In this document: piece after piece, positions 1,181-61,752 of the stretch
How positions within the stretch are numbered: position 1 is the stretch's first letter
How the letters are laid out: each line of letters begins with the position of its first letter
Origin: Candidatus Saccharibacteria bacterium UBA3218
Lineage (GTDB): Bacteria; Patescibacteriota; Saccharimonadia; Saccharimonadales; Saccharimonadaceae
NCBI GenBank assembly: GCA_002363125.1
Contig: DEWE01000009.1
Span: forward strand, 68,489 to 132,488
Reading direction: 5' to 3'
Length of the DNA stretch: 64,000 bases
The notes under the pieces: generated by a model
What the model saw: only the letters and a program-made list of their open reading frames with translations
Told to the model about the DNA's origin: nothing
Database searches by the model: none
Translations under genes and position numbers: made by a program

Positions 1181-1990
1181 TGGTTTAATTATAACACATT
1201 TACCTGGAGCTAAGCCAGTAAGCTGATATTTACCAAATTGGGTACGATGGAGGGCGGTGACTTTATAGCCAAGTGCAGCGAAAGTACGGCGGATTTGACG
1301 ATTGCGACCTTCAGTAAGCTTAACAATATAGGAATCTTCAGATACCGTCTTTCTCGGGTCGCGTCGCTCACGCCCGTTTGCCTTCGGCAATTCGTTCCGA
1401 GCGCCACGGGGCGAGCGCGCTAAATCTCGCCCTGCCGGGCTCCGAAATCCCCTCGAAAGAGGTATCTTAAGATTTCTTATAACCGTGAACTTACTTGGGC
1501 CATCATCTAACATTACGCCGTAGTCGGAGATCATTTGTTGATGAAGTGGCTCCAAGGGTCTATCAAGTTCCACTTCGTAAATTTTTTCCTTATGAAACCT
1601 TGGGTGGGTCATCTGGAAGGCAAAATTACCATCATTCGTTAATAGAATTAAACCAGAGCTGTCTTTATCTAGGCGGCCGACGGTCTTTAATTTGCGGTAC
1701 TGCCTTGGTAATAATTCGTATAGAGTTGGAGTTTTGCCTTGAGCGCGACGCGAACAAACATAGCCAACTGGCTTATTGAAGGCAATATACAAGAAATCCG
1801 TCTCAAACGGTATTATCTTTCCATTATAACATACTTTATTATTTTTGTCAATTTTTTCCCCTATCTTTGCGGTTTTTCCGTCCACAGAAATACTGCCGAC
1901 AGATATTAAATCGTCGGCTTCACGACGTGAAACGCCTAGGCGCTCAGCGAGAAATTTATTGAGCCGGAGCCCCTGGGATTGGTTGTCCAT
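1178..1990 (-). CDS. rluB: Pseudouridine synthase, RsuA/RluB family, with S4 domain; carries an in-frame palindromic insert
   Basis: 270 aa. S4 motif LRLNKFLAERLGVSRREADDLI. Core motifs FNKPVGYVCS, GRLDKDSSGLILLTNDG, TEGRNRQIRR. An atypical GC-rich segment encodes RGFRSPAGRDLARSPRGARNELPKANGRERRDP. Confidence 0.85.
   Translation of the reverse strand: MDNQSQGLRLNKFLAERLGVSRREADDLISVGSISVDGKTAKIGEKIDKNNKVCYNGKIIPFETDFLYIAFNKPVGYVCSRRAQGKTPTLYELLPRQYRKLKTVGRLDKDSSGLILLTNDGNFAFQMTHPRFHKEKIYEVELDRPLEPLHQQMISDYGVMLDDGPSKFTVIRNLKIPLSRGFRSPAGRDLARSPRGARNELPKANGRERRDPRKTVSEDSYIVKLTEGRNRQIRRTFAALGYKVTALHRTQFGKYQLTGLAPGKCVIIKP
1341..1465. repeat. GC-rich palindromic mini-element, family 1, inside rluB (core antisense to the gene)
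   Basis: Arms gataccgtctttctcggg / cccctcgaaagaggtatc. Core shares gcccgtttgccttcggcaattcg, gagcgccacggg and ccgaaat with the trmD and uvrC copies. Lies on the same (+) strand as those copies although the host gene is on the minus strand. ORF stays open. Confidence 0.8.
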
Positions 1991-2450
1991 TGTCTACCTG
2001 AGCTGGCGCAGTAGCTAGATTATTTGGTGTAGTTTGAGTCTGTGGTTCTGGGGCAGGAGTGGGAGCGGGTGCTGGAGCTGCGCGATCTCCTAATACTTCA
2101 TGGATGGTATTGACAACATCCTCAATGCCAACTTGGGATTTGACTAGATATTTATCGGCGCCAAGTCTCTCGCCGCGTTGACGCTGGTCTTCGCCAGAAA
2201 GCGCCGTCATCATAACGACTTTAATGCTGGAGGTTTCTGGAGTGGAACGCAAGATGTCTAACATATCAAAACCGGATATTTTTGGCATCATAACGTCCGA
2301 TAAAATTAAATCTGGCTTTTCGCGGACCGCTACGGCAAGGGCTTCTTCGCCATCACCAGCCGAAACCACTTCATAGCCTTCGGCGGCAATACGAATTCCA
2401 TAGATTTCACGTAGGTTTGCGTCGTCTTCGACTACCATTACTTTACTCAT
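1956..2450 (-). CDS. Single-domain response regulator (CheY-like receiver) with Pro/Ala/Thr/Gln-rich C-terminal tail
   Basis: 164 aa. MVVEDDANLREIY...LILSDVMMPKISGFD...VVMMTAL...K matches receiver-domain acidic pocket, T and K positions. No DNA-binding output domain. Tail is APAPAPTPAPEPQTQTTPNN. Confidence 0.85.
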   Translation of the reverse strand: MSKVMVVEDDANLREIYGIRIAAEGYEVVSAGDGEEALAVAVREKPDLILSDVMMPKISGFDMLDILRSTPETSSIKVVMMTALSGEDQRQRGERLGADKYLVKSQVGIEDVVNTIHEVLGDRAAPAPAPTPAPEPQTQTTPNNLATAPAQVDNGQPIPGAPAQ

Positions 2451-3865: not shown

Positions 3866-3913
3866 CTGAATTTATTTTAACACAAGCTAAATAAAATGTG
3901 GTATATTTTAATT

Positions 3914-5566: not shown

Positions 5567-5580
5567 ATTAGAAGTTTAAA

Positions 5581-6999
5581 ATGAAGATTTTATCCTTAGA
5601 TGTAGGTGAAAAGCGCATCGGCGTGGCACGTGCTGATTCTGGAACTAGAATTGCAGTACCAGTTGGTGTCATAGAGGTTGATGGCTCTGAGTGGCAAGAA
5701 ATTACACGCTTAGCAAAGCTTAATAGCACCAATTTCTTTGTTTTGGGTCTTCCTCGAAGCAACGAAGGAAACGAAACTAAACAGTCTGCTTACGTACGGC
5801 AGTTTGCAAAAACTCTCGTAGAAAAAATACCGGAGGCGAAGATTCGTTTTCAGGACGAATCGCTCACGTCAGTGGTTGCAGAGGAAAGATTAAAATCTCG
5901 TAAGAAAAAATATGAGAAAGGCGAAATTGATGCTGAGGCTGCTTCTATTATTTTGCAGGATTTTTTAGAGAGTTTTGGTCAAAGCATTCCAGAACTATCT
6001 TCTGAGGACCGTAAGCTTGGGCGAGCGCCCTTGAGCGTATCTGAAGAAGATGGTTCGGAACGCTTACAAAGTGTTGCTAATCTAGCAAAAAAAGAGGCAG
6101 ATAAAGTTAAATTAAATACTAAAAAGGCGAAACATAAGATGAAGACTGCAACGAAATGGATTTCTGGGGTGGCTGTAATAGTAATAATTGGATTAGCGGC
6201 AACTGGAATAGCATTGTTTATTAGAGACCAAAGATACAAAGAATATGCTGCTTATTTTGCTGAAGTAGAAGCTAACATGAAAGCAGATGTTTTTGATTTT
6301 ACGATTCGCCCTGGTGAAACGATTTTTGACATTAAAAAACACTTGATTGAAGTAGGGTATTCGGAAAATGAAGTAGACACAGCGCTAAATGCCGACTATG
6401 GCTTTGCCTTTTTGCAAAGTAGGCCAGCTGGGGCGAGTTTAGAGGGCTACCTCTATGGCGAAACACATGAATTTTATAGCGATACATCCGCAAAAGACGT
6501 CATAAAAACATATCTTGATGGCATGAAAAAAGTAATAGATGATAATGATTTAGAATCTAGATATGCGGAAAAGGGATTATCTTTGTATGAAGGAATTACT
6601 TTAGCATCAATAGTGCAAAAAGAGGCCCCTTCTCCAGAGATGCCAACCGTGGCACAAGTGTTTTTGACACGTATGGACTACGGAATACCCCTTGGAAGCG
6701 ATGTAACGGTGTCCTACGCGCTTGATACTATTGATCCTGATAGACAGACGTATACGGACAATCAAAGCGCCCTAAAGATCGACTCTTGCTATAATACACG
6801 AATTTATGCTGGTCTCCCCTGTGGACCAATCTCTAACCCAGGGCTATCCGCACTTCTATCCGTAGCAGATCCATCAGATACGGCTTATCTTTATTTCTTG
6901 ACAGGAGACGACGGAATAATGTATTATAGTTATACAGAGGCGGAGCATATTCAGAATATCCGTAGTCATTGCCAAGACCTCTGTGAAATATCATTATGA
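5581..6999 (+). CDS. ruvX/mltG: Fusion protein: RuvX/YqgF resolvase-like nuclease (N-terminal) + MltG/YceG endolytic transglycosylase (C-terminal)
   Basis: 472 aa. N-terminal part has MKILSLDVGEKRIGVARAD...VLGLPRSNEGNET...DESLTSV (YqgF). Then TM WISGVAVIVIIGLAATGIALFI. Then YceG motifs LEGYLYGETHEF, LASIVQKEA, YNTRIYAGLPCGPISNPG. The junction carries the palindromic element 5989-6058. Confidence 0.8.
   Translation: MKILSLDVGEKRIGVARADSGTRIAVPVGVIEVDGSEWQEITRLAKLNSTNFFVLGLPRSNEGNETKQSAYVRQFAKTLVEKIPEAKIRFQDESLTSVVAEERLKSRKKKYEKGEIDAEAASIILQDFLESFGQSIPELSSEDRKLGRAPLSVSEEDGSERLQSVANLAKKEADKVKLNTKKAKHKMKTATKWISGVAVIVIIGLAATGIALFIRDQRYKEYAAYFAEVEANMKADVFDFTIRPGETIFDIKKHLIEVGYSENEVDTALNADYGFAFLQSRPAGASLEGYLYGETHEFYSDTSAKDVIKTYLDGMKKVIDDNDLESRYAEKGLSLYEGITLASIVQKEAPSPEMPTVAQVFLTRMDYGIPLGSDVTVSYALDTIDPDRQTYTDNQSALKIDSCYNTRIYAGLPCGPISNPGLSALLSVADPSDTAYLYFLTGDDGIMYYSYTEAEHIQNIRSHCQDLCEISL
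5989..6058. repeat. GC-rich palindromic mini-element, family 2, at the ruvX-mltG junction
   Basis: Arms ccagaactatcttctgaggac / gtatctgaagaagatggttcgg. Core ggaccgtaagcttgggcgagcgcccttgagcgt is nearly the same as the intergenic copy at 48411-48489. Translated as SSEDRKLGRAPLSVSEEDGSE. Confidence 0.75.
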
Positions 7000-8114
7000 C
7001 GAAAAATAAGAAAAAATTTAATTTCGAACGATATAAAGGTATTATTCCTTACTTTTTGGTTGGAATTTTAACTTTAGTTTTAGTTTTTATAGGTTCCGTA
7101 GATAAACATAGTTCCAGTGCTAATCTAAGCCTAGATACTTTTGTAGCAAATGACTACACTGTATCTGTTGATCAACTTTCTGAGTTATACATGGTGGCAG
7201 ACTTATCGGATGCTTTGGGTCTTGCAAGTGCTCCAGACGTGGCATCTAATTATGTTATTACCAGCACTCTATTTGACTCTGGTCAGACCTCTATTGGCAA
7301 GATAGAAAAACCAAACATTACGGATATCACGGTTTCGCGTGGTGTTGTTGAACACGTAGTAGCTGATGGCGAAAGTATGGACACTATAGCTGCCAAATAT
7401 GGCGTTTCTACAGATGAAATTCGCTGGTCCAATGGCATGAAAGATACAGACGTTTCGCCAGGCGATTTACTCTATATACCGAGCGTATCCGGCATCGTCT
7501 ATACCGTCAAATCTGATGACACCATTGAGAGCATAGCAGAGAAGTATGGGTCTAATGTAGCGGAAATTATAGCCCTAAATGACCTAGAAGTCTCTGGTAT
7601 AGGTGAGGGGATGCGTATAGTTATCAAGAATGGGTCATTGCCGGAGACTGAGCGTCCAGAATATGTACCACCGAGGCGAACCACTACTTATAACTATACA
7701 TACTTGGGTGATTCCTCCTCAAGGCAAAACGTACAAGTCATTGCTACAGGCTTTTATGATTCTGCGTACTCTTATCCAAACCCTAACCCAGGGGTGCCTG
7801 GTTGGTGTACGTGGTATGCATGGTACTGGCGCGCCACGAGCCCTCTATCACTCGGGGAATTGGGGCACGAGGGGCGCAATGCGAATACATGGAATTATAA
7901 TTATTCCTACCGTGGCGTAGGAAATACCCCAGCGGTTGGTGCAGTATTCCAAAGCCCTTATGGCGGTGGTGGTTATGGGCACGTCGGTGTAGTGGTTGGA
8001 ATTAATGACGATGGGTCTATTGTTGTACAAGAAATGAATTATGCTGGCAGATATGTAGTTACACAGGCGACTATCCCAGCTTCTAGTGTAGGTAATTTTA
8101 ATTATATCTATTAA
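6996..8114 (+). CDS. Membrane-anchored peptidoglycan hydrolase with two LysM domains and a C-terminal CHAP domain
   Basis: 372 aa. N-terminal TM. Two LysM-like repeats (HVVADGESMDTIAAKYGVSTDEIRWSN; YTVKSDDTIESIAEKYGSNVAEIIALN). CHAP Cys/His context CTWYAWYWR ... GHVGVVVG. ATGA overlap with the upstream gene. Confidence 0.8.
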   Translation: MTKNKKKFNFERYKGIIPYFLVGILTLVLVFIGSVDKHSSSANLSLDTFVANDYTVSVDQLSELYMVADLSDALGLASAPDVASNYVITSTLFDSGQTSIGKIEKPNITDITVSRGVVEHVVADGESMDTIAAKYGVSTDEIRWSNGMKDTDVSPGDLLYIPSVSGIVYTVKSDDTIESIAEKYGSNVAEIIALNDLEVSGIGEGMRIVIKNGSLPETERPEYVPPRRTTTYNYTYLGDSSSRQNVQVIATGFYDSAYSYPNPNPGVPGWCTWYAWYWRATSPLSLGELGHEGRNANTWNYNYSYRGVGNTPAVGAVFQSPYGGGGYGHVGVVVGINDDGSIVVQEMNYAGRYVVTQATIPASSVGNFNYIY

Positions 8115-9275: not shown

Positions 9276-9438
9276 CTCCACTTAGAAAGGACTCATTCGA
9301 AGGCATAGCAATCCCTCTAACCGGCGGGCCCCAATTGTGTGAGGTGGGTTACGCTCCGGGGTTCACCCGGTATAGTAGTGAAGCGTTAGAGGGCCAAAAT
9401 AGCCTCAGGTGATGCCCACCCTTACCTGAGGCTTTTTT
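9276..9438 (+). ncRNA. Candidate structured RNA of unknown class, ending in a strong intrinsic terminator
   Basis: GC-rich island in AT-rich spacer. Closing stem ccctctaac (9313-9321) / gttagaggg (9385-9393). Inner hairpin ccggg-gttca-cccgg. Terminal hairpin gcctcagg...cctgaggc followed by tttttt. 5' end and strand are not certain. Confidence 0.4.
9402..9438 (+). terminator. Rho-independent terminator; usable in both directions
   Basis: gcctcaggtgatgcccacccttacctgaggc followed by tttttt on the + strand. On the minus strand the same hairpin is followed by tatttt, just after the stop of the 9454-9888 ORF. Confidence 0.7.
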
Positions 9439-9453
9439 GATGTGAAAATCTTT

Positions 9454-13336: not shown

Positions 13337-14686
<1,350 letters not shown>

Positions 14687-14756: not shown

Positions 14757-14907
14757 AAGCTGATACGCTTCACAGGGGTTCCACTGATTACTTAGTGGAG
14801 TGTGGAGACTTACATTAAAAACAAAAACAGCGGATTAAAACAAACCAATGTGCCCCAGGGTGGGCGCGCATCAGCGCGGGAGAGACGACTTCAAGTCGTC
14901 TCTTTTT
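14757..14907 (+). ncRNA. Candidate ~150-nt structured sRNA of unknown class, with its own promoter and terminator
   Basis: 5' gctgatacgc pairs with gcgcatcagc (14873-14884). Hairpin ccact-gattactt-agtgg. Stem acatt/aatgt encloses an A-rich loop. Terminator gagagacgact-tca-agtcgtctc plus ttttt. No plausible ORF. The trmD promoter follows immediately. Confidence 0.5.
14879..14907 (+). terminator. Rho-independent terminator of the sRNA candidate
   Basis: ggagagacgacttcaagtcgtctc followed by ttttt. Confidence 0.75.
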
Positions 14908-14952
14908 GTTTCCCCTGGTGAATTAACAGGGGAAATGTGGTATAATAAGAAC

Positions 14953-15729
14953 ATGATTAAATTCACAATTATCACTTTGTTTAAGGAAGCTCTGGAGCCA
15001 TATCTCAAAACCTCCATGATGTGGAAGGCTACAGAAAAAGGTTTAGCGGAGTTTGATTTTGTGGATTTACGTGAATTTGGCTTAGGACCACATAAGTCCG
15101 TAGATGATACGCCGTACGGGGGCGGGGACGGGATGTTGCTCCGATGCGAGCCAGTTTTTGCTGCAATTGAGTCTGTAAAAGCTAAAGATCCAGATGCGAA
15201 AGTTATTTTACCTACCCCTGTAGGTAAAATCTGGAATCAAGAAATGGCTAGAGAGTTTGCGTTTTACTCGGGGCCGCGTCCGTCCGGCCCGTTTGCCTCC
15301 GGCAATTCGCTTCCCAAGGGGCGAGCGCCACGGGTGGACGACGTTATCTCTCGCGCTGCCGCGATCCGAAATAACCCGAGTCAAAATGCAAACTCTCACT
15401 ACATCATCTTGTGTCCTCACTACGAGGGATATGACGAGAGAATTTTGTCGATTGTAGATTATAAAATTTCGCTTGGAAAATATGTTTTAACAGGTGGGGA
15501 ATTACCCGCGCTTATTATTATCGATTCCGTTGTACGGCTAATACCTGGAGTGCTTGGTGGAGAAACTTCTGCCGAGATCGAGAGCTTTTCTGAAGGTGAC
15601 AACCTAGAATATCCTCAATATACCAAACCTTACGATTTTCGTGGGATGACGGTGCCAGATATTCTGCTCTCCGGCAATCACGGTGAAATAGCAAAGTGGC
15701 GCAAGGACCATAGTGGCAAAGCGTTGTGA
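14953..15729 (+). CDS. trmD: tRNA (guanine37-N1)-methyltransferase TrmD with a ~45-residue in-frame palindromic insert
   Basis: ORF 14848-15729. True start taken as ATG 14953 (MIKFTIITLFKEALEPYL). TGgTATAAT ends 6 nt upstream. Motifs DDTPYGGGDGM, CPHYEGYDERI, LTGGELPALIIIDSVVRLIPGVLG. Insert encodes FYSGPRPSGPFASGNSLPKGRAPRVDDVISRAAAIRNNPSQNA. Confidence 0.9.
   Translation: MIKFTIITLFKEALEPYLKTSMMWKATEKGLAEFDFVDLREFGLGPHKSVDDTPYGGGDGMLLRCEPVFAAIESVKAKDPDAKVILPTPVGKIWNQEMAREFAFYSGPRPSGPFASGNSLPKGRAPRVDDVISRAAAIRNNPSQNANSHYIILCPHYEGYDERILSIVDYKISLGKYVLTGGELPALIIIDSVVRLIPGVLGGETSAEIESFSEGDNLEYPQYTKPYDFRGMTVPDILLSGNHGEIAKWRKDHSGKAL
15251..15397. repeat. GC-rich palindromic mini-element, family 1, inside trmD (147 bp = 49 codons between outer arm ends)
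   Basis: Arms gagagtttgcgttttactcggg / cccgagtcaaaatgcaaactctc. The ~113-nt core is near-identical to the uvrC copy. Confidence 0.85.
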
Positions 15730-23104: not shown

Positions 23105-23581
23105 ATGCCACGCAAAACCACTAAATCATTAGTACGCAAGGTTAGCCCTGATCGTAAATATCAATCTATGTTAGTACAAAGACTTATTAATAAGTCTATG
23201 CTTGATGGTAAAAAGCAGGTCGCTGAACGTGCTGTTTATTCTGCAATCGAAGGCGCTGCAAAAAAATTGAAGTCCGAAAATCCAGTGGAAGTTTTGGAAA
23301 AGGCTATCGCCAACGTATCACCAGATTTTGAAGTGAAGTCTCGTCGCGTTGGTGGCGCTAACTATCAAATTCCATTCCCAATCTCTGGTCATCGTCAACT
23401 TCACTTTGCATTTTCATGGTTAGTACAATCTGCTCGTGCACGCGGTGGTATGCCATATGCAAAACGCCTAGAAGCAGAAATTGTCGATGCCTATAACGAA
23501 ACCGGTGCTGCCTTCAAGAAGAAGGAAGATTGCCACCGTATGGCAGAAGCAAACCGCGCATTTGCGCATTTTGCAAGATAA
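23105..23581 (+). CDS. rpsG: 30S ribosomal protein S7
   Basis: 158 aa. VKSRRVGGANYQIP, MAEANRAFAHFA. Confidence 0.97.
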   Translation: MPRKTTKSLVRKVSPDRKYQSMLVQRLINKSMLDGKKQVAERAVYSAIEGAAKKLKSENPVEVLEKAIANVSPDFEVKSRRVGGANYQIPFPISGHRQLHFAFSWLVQSARARGGMPYAKRLEAEIVDAYNETGAAFKKKEDCHRMAEANRAFAHFAR

Positions 23582-23586
23582 CATTA

Positions 23587-23710
23587 GAGACAACAAAAAA
23601 TACCTTTGTGGGACCGGAGTCGCTCGCTCCCGTCGTTACGGGGCTCGCGCTCCTCGCGTTCTCGGTCGTAACCTCCGAAGCGTCCCAAAAGGTATTTTTT
23701 TGTTGTTTTC
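23587..23710. repeat. GC-rich palindromic mini-element, family 3, intergenic (3' of rpsG); terminator-like
   Basis: ~25-bp arms acaacaaaaaatacctttgtgggac / gtcccaaaaggtatttttttgttgt around core ggagtcgctcgctcccgtcgttacggggctcgcgctcctcgcgttctcggtcgtaacc. The right arm ends in a T-run. Confidence 0.85.
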
Positions 23711-23720
23711 AGTCTTATCA

Positions 23721-30339: not shown

Positions 30340-31719
30340 ATGGATGAGGCTTTAAAACAAAAACTTGATAAACTCCCGGTGGCTCCGGGGGTTTATTTTC
30401 ATAAAAATGCGACTGGGGAAATAATTTACGTTGGTAAGGCCGCGGTACTCAAAAATCGTGTGAGGCAATATTTCCAAAAATCGCAAAAGGATATAAAGAC
30501 TGAGGCTTTGGTGAAAGAAATTGCCGACACTGACTGGATAGTAGTAGACACAGAAATGGATGCTTTGTTTTTGGAGTCCGAAATGATCAAACGGTATATG
30601 CCAAAGTGGAATATTTTGCTCCGTGACGACAAGACAGTTTCATACGTCAGGATAAATATGAATGATGAAGTGCCATATGTATCTTTTACGAGAAACCCGG
30701 TAGATGACAAGGCTACCTACATTGGTCCATTTTATGGAAAAACTGCAGTAGAAAAGGCGGTGAGGATCCTAAGAAGAATTTTTCCTTACTACGACAAGCC
30801 ATATACTGGCAAAAAAACTTTAAACACAGACCTAGGACTGACACCTGGAATAGAAGTAGGAAAGAGTACCCCAAAAGATTATAAAAGAAATTTGCGTAAA
30901 TTGATTAGCTATCTCGGAGGAAATCGCGAGAAATTACTTAAAGAATTAGAAAAAAGTATGCATGACTCAGCATCGCGCGGTGATTATGAACTGGCAGCTG
31001 AGGCTCGCAACCAACTTTTTGGCCTGAAAGAATTAAAAAAGAAGATTGTCTTTTCCAATAAAGAATTCATGGATATTTCTTCTGATCAGGCGCTGAAACA
31101 ATTACAGAATTTGCTAAATCTCGAGAAGCCACCACGCAGAATAGAAGGGTATGATATTTCACATCAATCTGGCACTAACACCGTTGGGAGTATGGTGGTA
31201 TTCGTTAATGGGGCCTCCGCCAGAAACGAATACCGTAAATTCAAAATCCGTACTAGTACAAACGACGATTTGAAAAGTATGCAAGAAATAATCTCGCGTC
31301 GTCTAAAACATAAAGAGTGGGAATATCCAGATTTGATAATTCTAGATGGCGGAACTACACAAGTCAACGCAATTTTGCCACTCCTTGAGCCATACGGCAT
31401 ACCGGTGATTGGTCGTGATAAATCTGGTGATCATTCACATAACGCAAGGGTTGAGTTGGTATTTCAAGACTATCGAGTTCTCGGGCCGCGTCCGTCCGGC
31501 CCGTTTGCCTCCGGCAATTCGCGTCCCAAGGGGCGAGCGCCACGGGCGGACGGCGCTATCTCTCGCGCTGCCGCGCTCCGAAATACCCGAGAACTTCGAT
31601 GTCTTGAATTACCATCTAGCTCTCATATTGCGAGATTAATCGCAAGGATAGACGAAGAAAGTCATCGTTTTGCAGTTACGTATCACACTTTACTCAAGCG
31701 TAGAAATATGCTAAAGTAG
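30340..31719 (+). CDS. uvrC: Excinuclease ABC subunit C lacking the C-terminal (HhH)2 domain; in-frame palindromic insert
   Basis: 459 aa. GIY-YIG GVYFHKNATGEIIYVGKA. UVR GDYELAAEARNQLFGL. Endonuclease domain RIEGYDISH...LIILDGG...IDEESHRFAVTYH. Ends about 10 residues later. Insert encodes LGPRPSGPFASGNSRPKGRAPRADGAISRAAALRNTRE. Confidence 0.85.
   Translation: MDEALKQKLDKLPVAPGVYFHKNATGEIIYVGKAAVLKNRVRQYFQKSQKDIKTEALVKEIADTDWIVVDTEMDALFLESEMIKRYMPKWNILLRDDKTVSYVRINMNDEVPYVSFTRNPVDDKATYIGPFYGKTAVEKAVRILRRIFPYYDKPYTGKKTLNTDLGLTPGIEVGKSTPKDYKRNLRKLISYLGGNREKLLKELEKSMHDSASRGDYELAAEARNQLFGLKELKKKIVFSNKEFMDISSDQALKQLQNLLNLEKPPRRIEGYDISHQSGTNTVGSMVVFVNGASARNEYRKFKIRTSTNDDLKSMQEIISRRLKHKEWEYPDLIILDGGTTQVNAILPLLEPYGIPVIGRDKSGDHSHNARVELVFQDYRVLGPRPSGPFASGNSRPKGRAPRADGAISRAAALRNTRELRCLELPSSSHIARLIARIDEESHRFAVTYHTLLKRRNMLK
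31463..31608. repeat. GC-rich palindromic mini-element, family 1, inside uvrC
   Basis: Arms ttcaagactatcgagttctcggg / cccgagaacttcgatgtcttgaa. Core differs from the trmD copy by about 5 substitutions and 2 single-base indels, counted by eye. Confidence 0.85.
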
Positions 31720-36921: not shown

Positions 36922-36949
36922 AAAGAAAAAGGGAGGCATTAAGCCTCCC
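36922..36949 (-). terminator. Rho-independent terminator after the 36955-37287 ORF
   Basis: Minus strand reads gggaggcttaatgcctccc followed by tttttcttt. Confidence 0.7.
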
Positions 36950-36954
36950 GCGAG

Positions 36955-37287
36955 TTAGCCACCCTGAGGGCCCTCTCGCATTTCCATGCGGAGATCCTCT
37001 ATCAGCTCGTCGCTAGGGTTAGAATGTTTTCTGCCCTTTTTCTCTGGGCGAGTAGTGGGAAGCCATGGCGACTCCCTTTCGGGCTGAGGAACTATAGGAT
37101 ATGGCCCTATGGGGTAAAGAGACAATAACTCTAATGCAATATTAGAAAATTCGCCGTCAGTGATTATTTTGCCCTCTTCTGCTAACTTCTGAAGAACATA
37201 GATATTGAGATTTCCGTTAGGTAATCTGACACATATATCCTTTAAGTTCCCCTCATTATCTTTAATATGTACAAAGCGTTCTATCAT
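36955..37287 (-). CDS. Small hypothetical protein (110 aa) with own consensus promoter
   Basis: ORF 36955-37368. Start at ATG 37287 (MIERFVHIKDNEG), 6 nt after ggaggt. The C-terminal half looks more GC-rich than surrounding genes. No family recognised. Confidence 0.45.
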   Translation of the reverse strand: MIERFVHIKDNEGNLKDICVRLPNGNLNIYVLQKLAEEGKIITDGEFSNIALELLSLYPIGPYPIVPQPERESPWLPTTRPEKKGRKHSNPSDELIEDLRMEMREGPQGG

Positions 37288-37339
37288 ACGAACACCTCCA
37301 GAAAAATAGTATCTAGAAGTAAACTCTAGACCTGATCTA

Positions 37340-37368
37340 ATTATAGCACAAACATAATAAAAAGTCAA
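37340..37368 (-). promoter_or_regulatory. Consensus promoter TTGACT-17-TATAAT (minus strand)
   Basis: Minus strand reads ttgactttttattatgtttgtgctataat. Confidence 0.6.
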
Positions 37369-39548: not shown

Positions 39549-39565
39549 GTTACCGCTCGATAATA

Positions 39566-39594
39566 AAATAGCTCCCATCACTGGGAGCTATTTT
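39566..39594. terminator. Bidirectional terminator between tsf and the convergent protease gene
   Basis: aaaatagctccca-tcac-tgggagctatttt. Confidence 0.75.
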
Positions 39595-39607
39595 GATATA
39601 GAGGTTA

Positions 39608-46958: not shown

Positions 46959-48407
46959 ATGTTACTTGAAGATTATAGAAACGAAAGATTAAAAAAATTA
47001 GATGAGTTAAAAGCGCGTGGGATCAATCCTTACCCAGCCAAGAGCTTCCGCAATACGAAAATCTCTGAAATTATTAATCATTTTGATGAAAAAGATGGCC
47101 AAGAGGTGACTTTGGCTGGCAGAATTGTCGCAATTCGTTCCTTTGGCAAGCTTGTTTTTATTAAAATCCGTGATTACTTCGGCGAGATTCAGATTTTTAT
47201 GAAGGCCGAAGGCGAAACACCAGAAGGCTTGCTTGGAGCAAAAGACGTAAAACTACTTGATTTAGGTGATTTCATTGAAGTAACTGGTAAAATCGGCAAA
47301 TCGCAGACTGGTGAAATTTCGATATTCTCTAACTTTGTAAAGTTACTAACAAAATCGCTCAGGCCTTTACCAGAAAAGTTCACCAATAAGGAGGAGCGCT
47401 ATCGTAGGCGTTATGTAGACATGAACGTGAACCCAGAAGTACGCGAAAGATTAGTGCGTCGTAGTAAATTCTGGCAAGCCACACGTGATTTTATGAATAA
47501 ACATGGTTTTATCGAAATAAATATCCCAGTTCTCGAGCACACTACTGGTGGTGCAGATGCTACGCCTTTTACCACTCACATGAATGCTCTAAATGAAGAT
47601 TTTTATCTACGCATTTCGCATGAGTTGCCACTAAAAAGACTCCTTGGTGGTGGTTTTGAAAAAGTTTACGATATTGGTCCAAGGTTTAGAAATGAGGGCG
47701 TGGACGACGAACATTTACCAGAGCATATCGCATTCGAATCCTATGCTGCATATGAAAACTACGAAGATGGCATGAAGCTTTACGAAGAAATGATAAAATA
47801 TGTCGCGATGGAGACTTGGGGCACGTTAAAGTTTCATGTGGGCGGTTTCGATATTGATTTAGACTGCGAATGGCCAAGAATAAAATACGCGGATCTTTTG
47901 AAAGAAAAATTCGACGTAGACGTATTTAACCCGGATCGTGAACAGTTAATAAGAATCTTGAAAGAGAATGGAGTAGAAACGAATTTTGACGTGAGCGAAG
48001 CTCGCTTGATTGATCATGTCTGGAAATTAATTCGCAAAACTTCGGCTGGACCATATTGGTTGATCGAAGAGCCACTAAGTTTGTCGCCACTGGCAAAGAA
48101 ATCTGCCGAGAATCCTCTAGTAACTGAACGCTTCCACCCGATCATTGCCGGAACCGAAATGGGGAATGGCTTCTCGGAGTTAAACGATCCGTTGGACCAG
48201 CTAGAAAGATTTAGAGAGCAGCAAGCGGCACGCGACGCTGGAGACGAAGAAGCACAGATGTTAGATATGGATTTTGTGGAAATGCTAGAATACGGTATGC
48301 CACCAGCTTGTGGTTGGGGTAACTCTGAACGCAATTTCTGGCTACTTGAGGGAGTACCAGGACGCGAAGCGGTACCATTTCCAACGATGAAGTCTAAGGA
48401 AGAATAA
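46959..48407 (+). CDS. lysS: Lysyl-tRNA synthetase, class II
   Basis: 482 aa. OB anticodon-binding domain. YRRRYVDM, FRNEGVDDEHLPE, GWGNSERNF-type motif 3 region. Confidence 0.95.
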   Translation: MLLEDYRNERLKKLDELKARGINPYPAKSFRNTKISEIINHFDEKDGQEVTLAGRIVAIRSFGKLVFIKIRDYFGEIQIFMKAEGETPEGLLGAKDVKLLDLGDFIEVTGKIGKSQTGEISIFSNFVKLLTKSLRPLPEKFTNKEERYRRRYVDMNVNPEVRERLVRRSKFWQATRDFMNKHGFIEINIPVLEHTTGGADATPFTTHMNALNEDFYLRISHELPLKRLLGGGFEKVYDIGPRFRNEGVDDEHLPEHIAFESYAAYENYEDGMKLYEEMIKYVAMETWGTLKFHVGGFDIDLDCEWPRIKYADLLKEKFDVDVFNPDREQLIRILKENGVETNFDVSEARLIDHVWKLIRKTSAGPYWLIEEPLSLSPLAKKSAENPLVTERFHPIIAGTEMGNGFSELNDPLDQLERFREQQAARDAGDEEAQMLDMDFVEMLEYGMPPACGWGNSERNFWLLEGVPGREAVPFPTMKSKEE

Positions 48408-48410
48408 AGA

Positions 48411-48489
48411 GTTTTGAACGATTTACTTTTAGGACCGTAAGCTTGGCCGAACGGCCTTGAGTGTGTCCTAAAAGTAAATCGTTTAAAAC
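48411..48489. repeat. GC-rich palindromic mini-element, family 2, intergenic; bidirectional terminator-like hairpin
   Basis: 25-bp arms gttttgaacgatttacttttaggac / gtcctaaaagtaaatcgtttaaaac. Core cgtaagcttggccgaacggccttgagtgt. The right arm contains the stop codon of the convergent DUF167 gene. Confidence 0.85.
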
Positions 48490-48701
48490 TCTATAATTTT
48501 GCTATGTGACTTCGCGCCACGAATGATACTGATTGTGGTCTTTGGGACTTTGAAATGTTTTGCGAGAATCTTGATTAGAGCATCGTTGGCTTCGCCGTCA
48601 TGTGGTTTAGCGCGAAGATAAACTGTGAGCTCATTTAGTGCAGTTTCAATGATTTTCTCTTGCGACGATCCAGGTTTTACAGTAATAGTATAGCGATTCA
48701 T
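48483..48701 (-). CDS. DUF167 (YggU) family protein
   Basis: 72 aa. VYLRAKPHDGEANDALIKILAKHFKVPKTTISIIRGAKSHSK. Confidence 0.75.
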   Translation of the reverse strand: MNRYTITVKPGSSQEKIIETALNELTVYLRAKPHDGEANDALIKILAKHFKVPKTTISIIRGAKSHSKIIEF

Positions 48702-48744: not shown

Positions 48745-50817
48745 ATGCCTAAGTTTAATTTAGTGTCAAAATTTCAACCTACGGGCGACCAGCCGATGGC
48801 GATTAAACAGCTAACGGATGGTATTTTGGCGGGAGTGAAAGAGCAGACTTTACTCGGCGTAACTGGTTCTGGTAAAACTTTCACAATGGCAAATATTATC
48901 CAGAATATCCAAAAGCCAACGTTGATTTTGGCACACAACAAAACTTTGGCGGCTCAACTTTATTCTGAGTTCCGCGAGTTTTTTCCAAATAATGAAGTAC
49001 ACTATTTTGTATCATATTTCGATTATTACCAGCCAGAAGCTTATATTGCATCTACCGATACATATATTGAGAAAGACTCGGCGATAAATGATGAGATTGA
49101 TAGGCTTAGACACGCCGCAACCGAAGCTTTACTTACGCGTAGCGACGTAATTATTGTGGCATCCGTCTCTTGTATTTATGGTATTGGCTCGCCAGAGCAT
49201 TACACCGAAATGTCATTGCCACTATGGAAGAAATCCGATAAGGAATGGGTGGCAAATGATTCTCCGTCGGGAACGCTCCGGGGCGCTAGCCAGAGTCTTA
49301 CTCCCTCCGGAGAACATTTTGCCACCCTTTCGCAATTAGACTTTATTCGTCGTTTGGTGTCAATGCAATATCATAGAAACGATCTCGCGTTTGAGCGAGG
49401 TAATTTCCGCGTGATGGGCGATACTATAGATTTATATCCTGCAAACGGAGAATATGCTTATAGATTTGAGTTTGGCTTCGATAATTTGGAAGAAGTAAAA
49501 ATTGTAGATCCTTTAACCTTTGATATACGAGAAAGACCAGACCATGTGCATATTTTCCCAAATACACACTATGCTACACCGATGGACCAACTAGAAAAAG
49601 CTTTAGTGACTATCCGTGCGGAGTTTGATGAACGAATGAAATATTTCGAAAAGAACCAAAAATATCTAGAGGCGCAGAGATTATCCCAACGCACAAAATA
49701 TGATCTTGAGATGTTAAAAGAAACTGGTTTTGTAAAGGGAATTGAAAATTATTCTCGGCATCTAGACGGCAGGAAGCCTGGAGAGCCACCTTCTACACTA
49801 CTCGATTTCTTCCCGAAAGACTTTTTATTAATCGTAGACGAGAGCCATATGACTTTGCCGCAGGTGCGTGGTATGTATAACGGAGATCATGCTCGCAAAA
49901 AAACTTTAGTGGAATATGGTTTTCGTTTGCCAAGTGCAATGGATAACCGTCCGCTGACTTATGGTGAATTCCAACACCATATCAACCAAGCTATTTATGT
50001 TTCCGCCACGCCAGGAGAATATGAACTCGAAAATTCTCCTAAACCGGCCGAGCAAGTAATTCGCCCTACTGGACTTTTGGATCCAGAAATAGAAGTCCGT
50101 GGTAGCGAAGGGCAAATTGACGATTTAATGGAAGAAATTGATAAACGTATTGCCAAAGGGCAACGCACACTTATTACTACACTAACTAAACGAATGGCAG
50201 AAGATTTAACCGATCATTTAAAGGAGCGTGGCGTAAAGACCGCCTACATACATTCCGATGTAGACACGTTAGAGCGAAGCGACATACTAAGAGATTTACG
50301 TTCTGGAGTTTATGATGTTTTGGTCGGCATTAATCTTTTGCGAGAAGGGTTGGATCTACCAGAAGTGTCACTCGTGGCAATCCTTGATGCCGATAAAGAA
50401 GGGTTTCTCCGTTCCGAGTCAGCATTAATACAAACCATTGGTCGCGCAGCAAGGCACGAAGAGGGCAAAGTGATAATGTATGCGAATTTTATTACTGAGA
50501 GCATGGAAAAGGCTATATCGGAGACAAATCGTCGCCGTGAAATCCAGAAAGAGTACAATATAGAACACAATATTACGCCAAAATCCATTAAAAAAGAAGT
50601 GAACGTGGGGCTCCGTGCGATTATTCCAGAAAAAGAGAAGGAAAATAAATTAGATATCAAGCGTATACCAAAAGATGAGCTACCAGCACTAGTAAAACAA
50701 CTTTCTTCCGAAATGCAACTTGCAGCGGCCAATCTAGAGTTTGAACGCGCCGCTATGCTACGAGATGAGATAGAAAGAATTAAAGATTTTATAGATGGCA
50801 ATAAGATGAAAAAATAA
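48745..50817 (+). CDS. uvrB: Excinuclease ABC subunit B with a 27-codon in-frame palindromic insert
   Basis: 690 aa. [25 protein letters not shown] domain [16 protein letters not shown]. Insert [22 protein letters not shown] lies where E. coli UvrB is contiguous (LHLTVGMIIDQRAILRRL). Confidence 0.97.
49247..49327. repeat. GC-rich palindromic mini-element (short variant, 81 bp) inside uvrB
   Basis: Arms gggtggcaaatgattctccg / cggagaacattttgccaccc. Core tcgggaacgctccggggcgctagccagagtcttactccct. Confidence 0.75.
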
Positions 50818-52917: not shown

Positions 52918-52924
52918 AACCATT

Positions 52925-58047: not shown

Positions 58048-58056
58048 TGTTATAAT
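58048..58056 (+). promoter_or_regulatory. Extended -10 (TGtTATAAT) 6 nt upstream of the gatC ATG (leaderless)
   Basis: aatgttataat ttagcc ATG. Confidence 0.5.
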
Positions 58057-58062
58057 TTAGCC

Positions 58063-58350: not shown

Positions 58351-59816
58351 TGAAGGTAGCAAATCAAAAAGTAACCGCTGAAAGATTAGTAAGAGATGCT
58401 TTAGAGAAAGCAAAGCATTTTGCTGATTATAATATTTTTACTTTCTTGAATGAAGAAGGGGCAATCAAAAAGGCAAAGGAAATCGATGCAAAAATAGCCC
58501 GTGGAGAAAAAGTAGGTAGACTTGCTGGTGTGCCTTATGCTTTGAAAGATAATTTCTTAAGTCCAGAGGGTCAAACCACTGCTTCGGCGCATATACTAGA
58601 AGGATTTGTATCGCCTATAACCTCTACGGCAGTAGAAAAATTAGAAGCGGAGGGCGCCATTATGATCGGGCGCACCAATATGGACGCGTTTGCTCATGGG
58701 TCTTCTACTGAAAATTCCTATTTTGGTCCTACACTTAATGCATGTGATAAGAACTGCGTAGCTGGTGGCTCTTCTGGTGGGTCTGCTGTAGCCGTAGCGC
58801 TCGACATAGTGGAATTTGCGACTGGCACAGACACAGGTGGCTCAATACGACAACCAGCATCATTTAACGGTGTATATGGATTAAAGCCAACTTATGGCAC
58901 GATATCGCGCTATGGCGTAGTGGCGATGGCGTCTTCTACAGATTGTATTGGATTTTTCACCAAAACCCCAGATGATATGGATTTACTCATGGATATTGCT
59001 AGCGGACAAGATCCGAAAGATCTAACTACGTTACCAGATTACTATGGTCTAGCCAATGTGAGCAATTCTTCATTCGAGACCGTGTCTCGCGAGCCTTACG
59101 AGGCGAGCGAAGAGAGCGAACCCCGCGACGGCGGGCGTGAGCGAACGTGGTCGAGAATGGAGAATTGTCGCATTGGCATCATTAAAGATTTTGACAACGA
59201 GTCAGTTCGTCCCGAAATCAGACAGGCTCTGAAGAATAAAATTGAATCATTAAAATCTAAGGGGCATGAGATTGTAGAGTTGGAAATGCCAACCCTTAAA
59301 TATGCTTTGGCTGCATATTACATAATCGTGCCAGCGGAAATTGCCAGCAATTTATCACGTTATGACGGCATAAGATACGGTTTTAGATCTGAAAAAGCGG
59401 AAGATTTGAACGCGCTTTATAAAAATACTAGAAGCGAAGGTTTTATGCCAGAAAATAAACGCAGAATTATGATTGGCAATTTTGTGCTATCTAGCGGATT
59501 TTATGATGCGTACTTCTTGAAAGCAGCAAAAGCGCGTACGCTCATTGTAAAAGAGTACGAAAAAGCTTTTGAAAAATGTGATTTTATTTTGACACCCGTG
59601 TCGCCAAACCCAGCTTTTAAGTTAGGCGAGAAGGTCAATGACCCAGTAGCTATGTATCTAGAAGATATGATGTCTGTTTCGTTGAATTTGGCCGGTTTGC
59701 CTGGCCTTGCGATACCAACTGGAAAAACTGAAAGTGGACTGGCATTAGGATTGCAACTAGTGGGCCCTAGACGTAGCGATAAAAGTTTAATTGAATTTTC
59801 AAAGGAGTTAATCTAA
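58350..59816 (+). CDS. gatA: Glu/Asp-tRNA amidotransferase subunit A with a 35-codon in-frame palindromic insert
   Basis: 488 aa. Amidase signature GGSSGGSAVAVA and GTDTGGSIRQPA. Insert encodes SSFETVSREPYEASEESEPRDGGRERTWSRME. Confidence 0.95.
   Translation: MKVANQKVTAERLVRDALEKAKHFADYNIFTFLNEEGAIKKAKEIDAKIARGEKVGRLAGVPYALKDNFLSPEGQTTASAHILEGFVSPITSTAVEKLEAEGAIMIGRTNMDAFAHGSSTENSYFGPTLNACDKNCVAGGSSGGSAVAVALDIVEFATGTDTGGSIRQPASFNGVYGLKPTYGTISRYGVVAMASSTDCIGFFTKTPDDMDLLMDIASGQDPKDLTTLPDYYGLANVSNSSFETVSREPYEASEESEPRDGGRERTWSRMENCRIGIIKDFDNESVRPEIRQALKNKIESLKSKGHEIVELEMPTLKYALAAYYIIVPAEIASNLSRYDGIRYGFRSEKAEDLNALYKNTRSEGFMPENKRRIMIGNFVLSSGFYDAYFLKAAKARTLIVKEYEKAFEKCDFILTPVSPNPAFKLGEKVNDPVAMYLEDMMSVSLNLAGLPGLAIPTGKTESGLALGLQLVGPRRSDKSLIEFSKELI
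59063..59167. repeat. GC-rich palindromic mini-element, family 3 (reverse orientation on + strand), inside gatA (105 bp)
   Basis: Arms caattcttcattcgagaccgtg / acgtggtcgagaatggagaattg. Core gtctcgcgagccttacgaggcgagcgaagagagcgaaccccgcgacggcg is almost identical to the gatB copy. Confidence 0.85.
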
Positions 59817-60235
59817 TGGATGGCGGAGTGGTAACATTTATTATAGCGATTTTGATAGTCGCGGTTTTGGTGTTTGTGGCGATTTTGTTAACTGGCAAAC
59901 GCACTCATCACTTCAATATAGAGGCCTATCAAACACGTTTCCTCGCTATTGAAAATAAATTAAACAAAGAAAATCCTGCCACTTTTGTAACAACAATTTT
60001 AGAAGCGGATAAGCTGCTAGATAAAGCTATGGTGGAAATGGGGTTGTCTGGAAAAACGATGGGGGAAAGATTGAAACACGCCAATGGGAAATTTGAAGAT
60101 ATTAATGCGGTTTGGCGAGCACATAAATTGCGCAACGCTATTGCCCATGAATCAGATTTAGAAATTGGTTACAAACAAGCATTAAATGCCTTGGCTATTT
60201 ATAAAAAGGCATTGAAAGATTTGGGGGCAATTTAA
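59816..60235 (+). CDS. Small TM-anchored protein with HEPN-like Rx4H motif (DUF4145-like), embedded in the gatCAB operon
   Basis: 139 aa. TM VVTFIIAILIVAVLVFVAILL. All-helical remainder containing AHKLRNAIAHES. Start overlaps the gatA stop (TAATG) and stop overlaps the gatB start (TAATG). Confidence 0.5.
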   Translation: MDGGVVTFIIAILIVAVLVFVAILLTGKRTHHFNIEAYQTRFLAIENKLNKENPATFVTTILEADKLLDKAMVEMGLSGKTMGERLKHANGKFEDINAVWRAHKLRNAIAHESDLEIGYKQALNALAIYKKALKDLGAI

Positions 60236-61752
60236 TGAAATACATTCCAACGATCGGTGTTGAATGTCATGTGCAACTTTGCACCAAGACTAAGCTTTTT
60301 TCTGAAGTAGATAATGATGCACGCGGGAAAGAACCAAACTCCTGCGTATCGCCAGTGGACTACGCGCTTCCTGGTATGTTGCCGAGGTTAAACGGTGAAG
60401 CAATAAGGTTTGCGATTCTGGCTGGCAAAGCCATGAATTGTAAAATTAATAATTATTCCAGATTTGATCGCAAGCATTATTTCTATCCGGATTCACCAAA
60501 AGGCTATCAAATCACACAATTCTATCACCCGATCATTGGCGAAGGTTATGTAGATTTACCGTCCGGCGAGAGAGTCCGGATTGAACACGCGCATCTAGAG
60601 GGTGATGCTGGAAAGTTGACCCATTTCGATAAATATTCACTTGTAGATTTGAACCGCGTAGACACGCCACTCATTGAGATTGTTTCTATGCCAGATATAC
60701 ATTCTGCTAAAGATGCTCATGATTATTGTAAAGAACTCTGGCGGCTAATGTGTTTTACTGGTGTCACTAATGGCGATCTATATAATGGCAATATGAGATT
60801 CGATGTCAACACGTCTATTGCTCCTGAGGGATCTAATGAACTTGGGACTAGAACTGAGGTAAAAAATCTGAACTCATTCCGCTCTGTCGAGCGTGCTATA
60901 GAATATGAAATCGCAAGACAAACGAAAGTTCTAAAATCTGGAGAAAAAGTCATACAAGAGACTCGTGGCTGGAATGATGCGACTGGTAAAACCACTGGTC
61001 AGCGGAGCAAGGAGGAGGCCAAAGATTATCGTTACATGCCAGAGCCAGACCTTCCACCGATTAATCTAACTCAAGAATTTATTGATACTGAAGCCGCAAA
61101 ACTTCCAATGATGCCTAGTGAGTACAAGGCAAAATTCGCTGGCATTATTGCTGACGATACTCTGGAAGTATTACTCGATTACCCAGAATTGATGAAAAAA
61201 CTAGGTGAGATAAGTGCTGGAGACGATTCTTCTGAGACCGTGTCCCGCGAGCCTTACGAGGCGAGCGAAGAGAGCGAACCCCGCGACGGCGAGCGCGAGC
61301 AAACGTTGTCGAAGAAGAACGTCTCAGCACTTAAACTGCTGTCTAATTTGTTTGCATCAGTACTTCTTGCAGAAGAGAAATCTGCAGAATACTTAAATGA
61401 TTTGCCGACCGCAATGGAACTTTCTGAACTCGCTGAAATGAATGAAAAGAAAGAGTTAAGCTCCACTGCGACCAAAGAAGTATTTCTCCGACTCTTTGAT
61501 CCGCAAATGAAGGGAAGAGGAACTAAAAATATCGCCAAAGAATTAGGGCTAATTCAAGAAAATGATTTGGATGCTCTGGAGGCCATCGTTGATACAGTTC
61601 TCGCAAAACCAGAAACCCAAAAAGCCCAAGACGATTTTAGAAACGGGGAAGAAAAAGTTATAGGTTTCCTCGTTGGACAAGTCATGAAAGAATCTCATGG
61701 TAAGGCCAATCCGTCTGCCGTACAAGAAATTTTGCGAAAAAAATTGAAATAA
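60235..61752 (+). CDS. gatB: Glu/Asp-tRNA amidotransferase subunit B with in-frame palindromic insert before the YqeY-like tail
   Basis: 505 aa. IGVECHVQL, RFDRKHYFYPD, YRYMPEPDLPP. Insert encodes SSETVSREPYEASEESEPRDGEREQTLSKKN. Confidence 0.95.
   Translation: MKYIPTIGVECHVQLCTKTKLFSEVDNDARGKEPNSCVSPVDYALPGMLPRLNGEAIRFAILAGKAMNCKINNYSRFDRKHYFYPDSPKGYQITQFYHPIIGEGYVDLPSGERVRIEHAHLEGDAGKLTHFDKYSLVDLNRVDTPLIEIVSMPDIHSAKDAHDYCKELWRLMCFTGVTNGDLYNGNMRFDVNTSIAPEGSNELGTRTEVKNLNSFRSVERAIEYEIARQTKVLKSGEKVIQETRGWNDATGKTTGQRSKEEAKDYRYMPEPDLPPINLTQEFIDTEAAKLPMMPSEYKAKFAGIIADDTLEVLLDYPELMKKLGEISAGDDSSETVSREPYEASEESEPRDGEREQTLSKKNVSALKLLSNLFASVLLAEEKSAEYLNDLPTAMELSELAEMNEKKELSSTATKEVFLRLFDPQMKGRGTKNIAKELGLIQENDLDALEAIVDTVLAKPETQKAQDDFRNGEEKVIGFLVGQVMKESHGKANPSAVQEILRKKLK
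61216..61328. repeat. GC-rich palindromic mini-element, family 3 (reverse orientation on + strand), inside gatB
   Basis: Arms gctggagacgattcttctgagaccgtg / aacgttgtcgaagaagaacgtctcagc. The core is shared with gatA. The outer arm sequence is copy-specific. Confidence 0.85.

Follow-up and report, generated by a model that had tools for sequence, protein, structure and literature searches.

We analyzed ten GC-rich imperfect palindromes in a 64,000-nucleotide stretch of the genome of Candidatus Saccharibacteria bacterium UBA3218 (contig DEWE01000009.1, positions 68,489 to 132,488; hereafter the window). Our reading, to which we give a probability of about 0.6, is that they are copies of non-autonomous, hairpin-forming, GC-rich repeats, which fall into several families, inhabit the AT-rich genomes of Candidatus Saccharibacteria from a clade associated with the gut, and resemble the Rickettsia palindromic elements (RPEs) in being selfish and translated along with their host genes. 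Four features are shown by the comparisons below: the elements invert in place, they are present at a site in some genomes and absent from it in others, they are modular, and their outer arms are private to each copy.

The mean GC content of the window is 0.403, and all ten loci stand out from it, with GC over 60 nt reaching 0.63-0.78 and a content of 0.60-0.65 in the elements themselves. Twenty stretches of the window reach at least 62% GC (60-nt window), nine of which coincide with loci listed below. Read directly, each locus is an imperfect palindrome rich in GC. When single strands were folded and compared with dinucleotide shuffles, nine of the ten were much more stable than the shuffles (z from -3.4 to -10.6). 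The copy in obg (13607-13703) folded weakly (z = -0.6); it is 97% identical to the orthologous copy in the relative L036 and was matched by nhmmer at E = 0.016. Here and below, L001-L041 denote syntenic or core-bearing loci from relatives, and P-numbers denote homologous proteins. In a screen of GC islands that combined GC content with folding, eight of the ten loci scored as significant hairpins. The screen passed over 5989-6058, which lies under its GC threshold, and the copy in obg, and it also picked 14841-14904 and 36931-36991. An earlier note on this DNA had listed ten such palindromes, and the list stood up well: all ten are GC-rich, nine fold far better than shuffles, and the loci are real, although three of them extend beyond the limits given there (23587-23710 to about 23577-23719, 48411-48489 to about 48397-48503, and 49247-49327 to about 49243-49331). 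The ten copies are as follows, with letters for the sequence families described next and z for folding:

1341..1466, plus strand: family A, variant without the CGTCCCAAGGGG sub-hairpin, in an RluB-like pseudouridine synthase; recognized by alignment to the other A copies; z = -3.9.
5989..6058, strand unassigned: family C, in the linker of a RuvX-YceG/MltG fusion open reading frame (ORF; 5581-6999); z = -4.8.
13607..13703, plus strand: family D, between the GTPase domain and the C-terminal domain of Obg (ORF 13337-14683, minus strand); z = -0.6.
15251..15397, plus strand: family A, in TrmD, between MAREFA and HYIILCPHYEGYD; z = -6.1.
23577..23719, plus strand: family D, intergenic, directly 3' of rpsG; z = -7.5.
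31454..31617, plus strand: family A, full form, in the RNase H-like domain of UvrC, ahead of the IxxESHRF helix; z = -5.9.
48397..48503, strand unassigned: family C, intergenic, 3' of lysS; z = -10.6.
49243..49331, strand unassigned: family E, in the UvrB loop bounded by residues 160 and 199; detected as an inverted repeat; z = -6.7.
59062..59168, minus strand: family B, in GatA; 91% identical to the gatB copy; z = -6.6.
61216..61328, minus strand: family B, in GatB, between the catalytic core and the YqeY-like tail; 91% identical to the gatA copy; z = -3.4.

The copies resemble one another far above chance. Positions 15271-15376 (trmD) and 31483-31588 (uvrC) are 94% identical over 106 nt, 59069-59154 (gatA) and 61227-61312 (gatB) are 91% identical over 86 nt, and 6005-6041 and 48431-48467 are 86% identical. 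The similarity is thus real, and the treatment of all ten as a single group gave way to at least three sequence families. By alignment, seven of the ten loci form one modular superfamily, consisting of family A, family D (A without its apex) and family B (D-like, inverted). Family A (1341-1466, 15251-15397 and 31454-31617) has a core of about 115 nt of nested sub-hairpins, in the order junction TCTCGGG..CGCG, stem P2, apical module TTGCCTYCGGCAATTCGCGTCCCAAGGGGCGAG, P2', second hairpin and CCCGAGA; compensatory changes were found in all four variable pairs of P2. The 33-nt apical module is present in some copies and absent in others. Family D (obg and rpsG 3') is family A minus this module, and the window obg copy is the orthologous L035 copy less exactly these 33 nt. 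Family B (gatA and gatB) aligns to D only as the reverse complement, with scores of 29-36 (34-36 for the gatA copy), whereas shuffles averaged about 15.5 (sd about 2.5). A different core, of about 40 nt, marks family C (5989-6058 and 48397-48503). Family E (uvrB) has a single copy in the window, and its peptide, SPSGxLxGASxSLTPSGE, recurs at the UvrB loop of many Saccharibacteria. An extra module, TTCGCTTCGCTCACGCGGCCCAAGGGGCGAACG, lies beside the second hairpin in the family A copies of L009 (about 277-420) and L034 (about 7330-7480). It contains the apical module's CCCAAGGGGCGA motif once more, which hints at recursive duplication or insertion of sub-hairpins. The length of the whole unit is a multiple of three.

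Each copy consists of an inner GC core of 40-115 nt, shared across sites and genomes, and a copy-specific, A/T-richer outer stem of 12-33 bp. The two arms of a copy match each other (complementarity score median 14, minimum 8.5) far better than non-self pairs do (median 6), and the left arms of different copies are unrelated, with a left-versus-left median of 5.5 that equals background. For example, the trmD and uvrC copies have cores 94% identical and unrelated outer stems; the uvrC copy was detected both as a direct repeat and as an inverted repeat. The trmD stem is 17 bp long and overlaps native REFA codons. In family C, 5989-6058 combines the core GAGGACCGTAAGCTTGGGCGAGCGCCCTTGAGCGTATC, found also in L001, L017 and L038, with a private stem of 12 bp, and the copy 3' of lysS surrounds the core that it has in common with 6005-6041 and the same three relatives with a nearly perfect private stem of 33 bp (an inverted repeat with 39-nt arms, 87% complementary). 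The rpsG 3' copy has an A/T-rich outer stem of 20 bp followed by a T-run, which gives it a terminator-like look. At the core ends, only the junction TCTCGGG/CCCGAGA, about 7 nt long, is semi-conserved among the copies.

Resident copies were found in both orientations at the same site. Downstream of rpsG, the flanks of the window and L036 are collinear and about 95% identical, and the 78-nt core of one is the reverse complement of the other with two mismatches; small arm asymmetries were swapped along with the core. In trmD, the element of L039 is 95-96% identical to that of L040 and L041 only as the reverse complement, compared with 84-86% for the host gene, and this flip changes the encoded peptide from HPGPRPSGPSPRADGANSRAAALRNAPDC to the entirely different QSGAFRSAAARELAPSARGDGPDGRGPGC. 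Opposite orientations at obg (L034 versus the window and L035) and at gatA and gatB (L010 and L021 versus the window) are consistent with inversion in place. These inversions are unlikely to be assembly artifacts, because the arms (at most 33 nt) are shorter than the final k-mers (k87-k141 in contig names). Because the DNA was kept through a flip that replaces the peptide, and because the element diverges less than its host gene at short distance, the constraint appears to act on the nucleic acid and not on the peptide. We considered whether every copy is competent to flip and rejected the idea: upon inversion in silico, the ORF was kept in 16 of 31 copies, compared with 21 of 62 for the other antisense frames. 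A metagenome scan with the rpsG 3' arm, seeking flip polymorphism, gave no match.

The same sites were also found empty or occupied by another type of element. The trmD site is empty in L035 and L037 and holds a D-type element in L038-L041; in L036, only the left arm remains after a 120-nt in-frame deletion of the core and right arm, leaving AREFALCSGSH. The obg site is empty in L037, and the ruvX-mltG site is empty in L036 (441 versus 472 amino acids). The gatB site is empty in L010 and has an A-type element in L021, and the gatA site is empty in L021 and has an A-type element, in the opposite orientation, in L010. The uvrC site is filled also in L009, and an A-type copy lies 3' of rpsG in L028. 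As the earlier note had proposed, these segments are lineage-specific insertions, being absent from orthologs in related genomes and from solved homologs. Across the 119 nearest TrmD protein clusters, the linker is short in 40; a D or A peptide occurs in 33, its flipped reading in 4 and other inserts in 42. The UvrB loop is empty in some lineages, and elsewhere it contains E-, C- or D-type elements or at least three further GC-rich insert types. Unrelated GC-rich inserts occur in the TrmD and UvrB homologs P0043, P0056, P0159, P0170, P0174 and others, such as GVSEPVFSEAGLEFSSTSYAGQPAEPSLRDEPVGDVRDIRVENSNQNF in TrmD, and further UvrB loop inserts in other Saccharibacteria read SSGRVATARRHGGGALLLALPGSEPPSEE, FGHAPGRSGQVLTSLRS and SETLRSRPSLRGSLAPFAPVVAQASS. 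The repertoire is therefore much larger than the three families of the window.

Filled and empty alleles also bear on how the stems arose. In TrmD, the residues that flank the insert co-vary as reverse complements (EFA..ANS, TFA..ANV, ALA..ASA, RFA..ANL and GFA..ANP). The REFA codons are present in empty alleles too, and they are the outermost and only native part of the stem when the window copy is compared with the empty L035 and L037 sites. A model in which one arm is native and the other a fresh inverted copy was rejected, since neither whole arm is found in the empty trmD of L035 or L037; what we kept of it is the partial idea that stems creep into their flanks. At trmD and obg, the net gain in length is about that of the core, as though native linker had given way to the stems; at gatB, it is nearer to that of the whole hairpin.

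One alternative is that the palindromes are functional structures selected by the host, such as terminators, hairpins that stabilize or process mRNA, signals for ribosome pausing at domain boundaries, or DNA signals for uptake, recombination or nucleoid proteins, and that they are adaptive rather than parasitic. The element being more conserved than an essential host gene, even through a flip that changes the peptide, speaks for such a role, as does the position of many intragenic copies at domain linkers (Obg, GatB and the RuvX-MltG fusion) and of intergenic copies right behind the 3' ends of genes, where A-tracts and T-runs border the stem. On the other hand, sites are empty in close relatives with no visible consequence, copies decay through deletion, unrelated core families occupy the same loop in different lineages, and the orientation to transcription is random (14 versus 15). 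The rpsG 3' copy is followed by TTTTTTTGTTGTTTT, yet a consensus terminator scan was blank at both intergenic copies (it covers loops of 3-8 nt only, which excludes such structures), and ordinary short terminators occur elsewhere in the window. For the eight intragenic copies, a role as terminator at a gene end does not come into question. We therefore consider a host-selected function unlikely. A strand-specific RNA function was rejected, because the two strands fold alike and copies are almost equally divided between orientations. Folding energies of the two strands are similar, with G-U counts of 147 versus 135, and this lack of strong asymmetry fits a palindrome that matters at the level of DNA.

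We searched a collection of species-representative genomes for exact matches to a 22-nt pattern from the family A core. All 35 matches fell in 27 assemblies that bear the name Candidatus Saccharibacteria or Nanosyncoccus, apart from one called just "bacterium"; most derive from gut samples, of ruminants and others. The window accordingly belongs to a genome of Saccharimonadota. Among 37 usable copies, long ORFs contain about 25, and about 10 lie between genes or a little way upstream of a start. Their hosts are housekeeping genes, among them Dus, TsaD, a TrmA-like methyltransferase, ArgRS, ValRS, IleRS, UvrC, UvrD, GatA, GatB, QueA, Der, Obg, TatD and others. The A and C cores had no match in viral contigs. 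Rfam 15 at the gathering threshold found only two tRNAs in the window and matched no element to a known structured RNA, self-splicing introns included, and E-value scans of one A and one C copy returned only microRNA-hairpin noise far below threshold. The 41-residue family A peptide retrieved 5 representatives among 1.84 billion proteins, a search for which the query is too short and the library too coarse.

Cores do not appear to be simply inherited along with their site. Median core identity was 0.60 for pairs at the same site, 0.645 for pairs in the same genome and 0.62 for all pairs, and a core's nearest relative, with an identity of up to 94%, often occupied a different site in a different genome. 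Concerted evolution within genomes found no general support as the main source of core likeness, as pairs from the same genome are no closer than random pairs, although the trmD/uvrC and gatA/gatB pairs of the window are 91-94% alike.

All eight intragenic copies of the window lie within housekeeping ORFs and are in frame, introducing neither stop nor frameshift and adding 24-50 residues. Here the earlier note was accurate: Pfam agrees with its host genes (RluB-like, RuvX-YceG fusion, Obg, TrmD, UvrC, UvrB, GatA and GatB), its estimate was roughly 25-49 residues, and its statement that the flanking positions are contiguous in homologs agrees with alignments to solved TrmD, UvrB, UvrC and GatB. 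The TrmD insert falls between residues 124 and 128 of Staphylococcus aureus TrmD (3ky7), the UvrB insert between 161 and 171 of 9gy7_E (net +29 residues relative to solved UvrB), the UvrC insert at about 113/122 of 2nrr (an alignment gap relative to the solved structure), and the GatB insert at 311/342 of 3al0_B (net +31 residues). The protein P0001 is identical to the window TrmD; an AlphaFold model of TrmD was uninformative for placing the insert at the surface (mean pLDDT 48.7). In the RluB-like ORF (1178-1990, minus strand; Pfam PseudoU_synth_2 and S4), the element is read antisense to its own orientation and encodes IPLSRGFRSPAGRDLARSPRGARNELPKANGRERRDPRKTVS. Two of the host genes have features of their own. 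The fusion of RuvX (Holliday junction resolvase-like) with YceG/MltG (5581-6999) is also present in L036 and L038 and is thus a conserved feature of the clade. UvrC (30340-31719) has only 459 residues, with GIY-YIG, UVR and RNase H-like domains and no Pfam match to a helix-hairpin-helix domain.

Residues G, P, R, S and A abound in the encoded peptides, and the approximately 25 intragenic copies of other genomes are all open as well. On average, cores are open in 3.7 of six frames, whereas a random 126-nt sequence is expected to be open in 2.3 at 66% GC and in 0.4 at the composition of the window. Family A uses every one of the six frames, with five copies in +0, one in +1, eight in +2, one in -0, seven in -1 and eight in -2, and its orientation to the host gene is sense in 14 cases and antisense in 15. 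Since no intragenic copy is interrupted in the frame that its host gene uses, read-through translation is strongly implied. With a unit of 3n and a GC core that is free of stops in most frames, copies therefore survive only in permissive loops and linkers and downstream of genes. We conclude that they persist as hydrophilic loops in proteins, or as terminator-like hairpins downstream of genes.

These results also bear on whether the segments are ordinary lineage-specific expansions of low-complexity linkers, with incidental palindromy and GC content, or artifacts of metagenome assembly. The inserts do lie in variable loops, whose length differs widely among Saccharibacteria, and the G-, P-, R-, S- and A-rich composition of the peptides also speaks for this view. 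Linker expansion is contradicted, however, by the recurrence of one nucleotide core between genes as well as within unrelated ones, where it is read in six frames and lies in either orientation, by folding z-scores down to -10.6, and by flips that swap the peptide and keep the DNA. An artifact is contradicted by recurrence in 27 assemblies from different studies and assemblers, and by arms shorter than the final k-mers. With the distribution of cores, the use of frames and the flips all contradicting it already, this explanation is hardly tenable.

We propose that the sites, which are permissive loops and gene ends, would be long-lived positions of hairpins. As the comparisons show, a resident copy can flip by exchange within its own arms, so that the peptide is rewritten and the DNA is nearly unchanged; it can gain or lose sub-hairpin modules in steps of 3n; and it can be removed by in-frame deletion. 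The arms would be kept complementary by arm-to-arm conversion or intramolecular template switching, and the same process could yield inversions and let the stem creep into neighboring native codons. Recombination or template switching from copy to copy, or insertion into the loops of hairpins, would spread cores among the hairpin sites, and they would need no transposase of their own. Their GC-richness and slow divergence would come from selection or biased repair acting on the DNA hairpin and not on the peptide. The conversion and template-switching steps, and the lack of a dedicated enzyme, are what we infer in this scheme.

Several points weigh against this selfish, RPE-like reading. Mobility of the cores was deduced from their distribution, because no insertion event was caught between near-identical genomes, and the occupancy of common loops across lineages could reflect vertical inheritance with conversion rather than transposition. 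No conserved terminal inverted repeat was identified, the outer arms being unrelated between copies. No target duplication was visible at the filled/empty pairs of trmD, gatA and gatB, which come from genomes 70-85% identical with variable linkers. No transposase or RAYT (a transposase associated with repetitive extragenic palindromic, or REP, sequences) was noticed among the ORFs and Pfam calls of the 64 kb and the short loci, which were not searched systematically. Flipping is not generally tolerated, because just about half of the copies stay open in silico. The slower divergence of the element than of its host gene could reflect a function that benefits the host instead of selfishness. Finally, translation of the inserts is strongly implied, and this argument comes from frame conservation only.

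[quoted passage not shown] Near-identical cores (up to 94%) at different sites of different genomes speak for such movement, as does the semi-conserved junction TTCTCGGG...CCCGAGAA at the core ends; and the nesting of modules at the tips of sub-hairpins suggests insertion into loops, a preference known from IS1397 and ISKpn1, which target REP loops. Nevertheless, the terminal inverted repeats are conserved over about 7 nt at most, with unrelated outer arms, direct-repeat target duplications are not visible at the pairs just described, no transposase was seen there, again short of a systematic search, and the empty trmD sites have no pre-existing long hairpin. With the conserved terminal inverted repeat lacking, the elements are not classical MITEs, and we regard transposition in trans as quite improbable.

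We also entertain, as a speculative and rather unlikely extension of the selfish, RPE-like reading, a system that is free of transposase altogether. Structure-directed recombination or template switching would copy cores into site-specific hairpins, swap them between such hairpins and flip them inside one, with selection or biased repair acting on the hairpin itself. If this were true, the elements would be invertible in-frame cassettes that rewrite loops of essential enzymes, or structural signals used by the cell; candidate roles are termination, ribosome pausing at domain boundaries, and DNA uptake or recombination in naturally competent epibionts.

In behavior, the elements are closest to RPEs, which make up several families of palindromic repeats, about 100-150 bp long, that lie in frame within unrelated metabolic genes, each family with one conserved peptide and thus one preferred frame (Ogata et al. 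2000, as summarized in PMC10969869). Both sets comprise several families, sit in frame in housekeeping genes of a reduced, host-dependent bacterium and also in non-coding DNA, have no transposase of their own, and are tolerated as an extra surface peptide. In contrast to RPEs, whose hosts are Alphaproteobacteria, the present elements belong to Saccharimonadota of the Candidate Phyla Radiation, are strongly GC-rich in an AT-rich genome, use six frames instead of one conserved peptide per family, and have copy-specific outer stems, shared modular cores and exact in-place inversions. Sequence homology to RPEs is not expected, because the hosts are Saccharibacteria and the elements are 60-65% GC. 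The comparison with RPEs made in the earlier note thus holds for behavior (repeated GC-rich palindromes, in frame, in unrelated housekeeping genes), and not for membership in the RPE families, which we do not claim; the likeness is a functional analogy. The note had missed the division into several families, the private outer stem of each copy, the inversion of cores in place and the use of all six frames.

Other known systems share part of this behavior. PMC2800124 covers GC-rich hairpins of organelles, namely the GC clusters of yeast mitochondria (optional and in frame in var1), the double-hairpin elements of Allomyces and the repetitive hairpin elements (RHEs) of sponges. As described there, they are likewise short and GC-rich, lie in AT-rich reduced genomes, sometimes in coding or rRNA genes, are optional between close relatives, are recombinogenic, and move by an uncertain mechanism; they differ in that the present elements occupy a free bacterial chromosome and most copies examined are within protein-coding genes. 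MITEs, REP/REPIN and the terminator-like SPRITE are small non-autonomous stem-loop repeats, some of which form intragenic in-frame fusions and some terminators (PMC10969869, PMC3184786). Here, unlike in those groups, the arms are private to each copy, the copies are mostly intragenic, and conserved terminal inverted repeats are lacking; REP and REPIN sequences are 20-40 nt and extragenic, compared with 70-164 nt and eight of ten copies intragenic in the window. Palindromic amphipathic repeat coding elements (PARCELs) are also dyad-symmetric coding DNA that can be read on either strand and is dispersed by intragenomic shuffling, but they are tandem 25-residue repeats in accessory membrane and surface proteins and not single hairpins in conserved enzymes. 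The full-text literature searched, which leaves most subscription journals outside, held no description of such elements for Saccharibacteria or the Candidate Phyla Radiation. Provisionally, we regard as new the occurrence of RPE-like in-frame palindromes in Saccharibacteria, together with their private stems, modular cores, use of six frames and inversion in place.

The window contains other structured segments. An intergenic segment at 9290-9440 is GC-rich (about 0.6), apparently structured, and closes with a clean intrinsic terminator, AGCCTCAGGTGATGCCCACCCTTACCTGAGGCTTTTTT. This candidate for a small RNA matched nothing in Rfam, even at E <= 1. The spacer between the divergent obg and trmD contains, at 14851-14920, a compound GC-rich hairpin (CCCCAGGG...GAGAGACGACTTCAAGTCGTCTCTTTTT...CCCCTGG) conserved in L035 and L037, which could act as a leader or attenuator or could be a small element, the eleventh. 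The mechanically called start of the trmD ORF (14848) runs through this hairpin, and alignment of homologs puts the true start at Met36 (about 14953). On the minus strand at 36931-36991, a short GC hairpin with a T-run behind it has the look of a terminator for ORF 36955-37368. Between convergent genes, 39560-39599 is an ordinary short intrinsic terminator, AAAATAGCTCCCATCACTGGGAGCTATTTT, from which it follows that normal terminators here are much smaller than the elements 3' of rpsG and lysS.

Taken together, the findings extend selfish DNA within protein-coding genes, which is rare, from Rickettsia and organelles to the Candidate Phyla Radiation, and suggest that reduced genomes that are AT-rich and host-dependent acquire it recurrently. 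The TrmD and UvrB loops, with no insert, one insert or another, in either orientation, form a natural experiment on the tolerance of insertions and the origin of peptide segments. The inversions and private stems point to a structure-driven, possibly transposase-free upkeep and spread of palindromes, and genetic tools reported for Saccharibacteria would make such spread testable. In practice, the inserts inflate and diversify proteins, and they may disturb gene calling, orthology, alignment-based phylogenomics and assembly.

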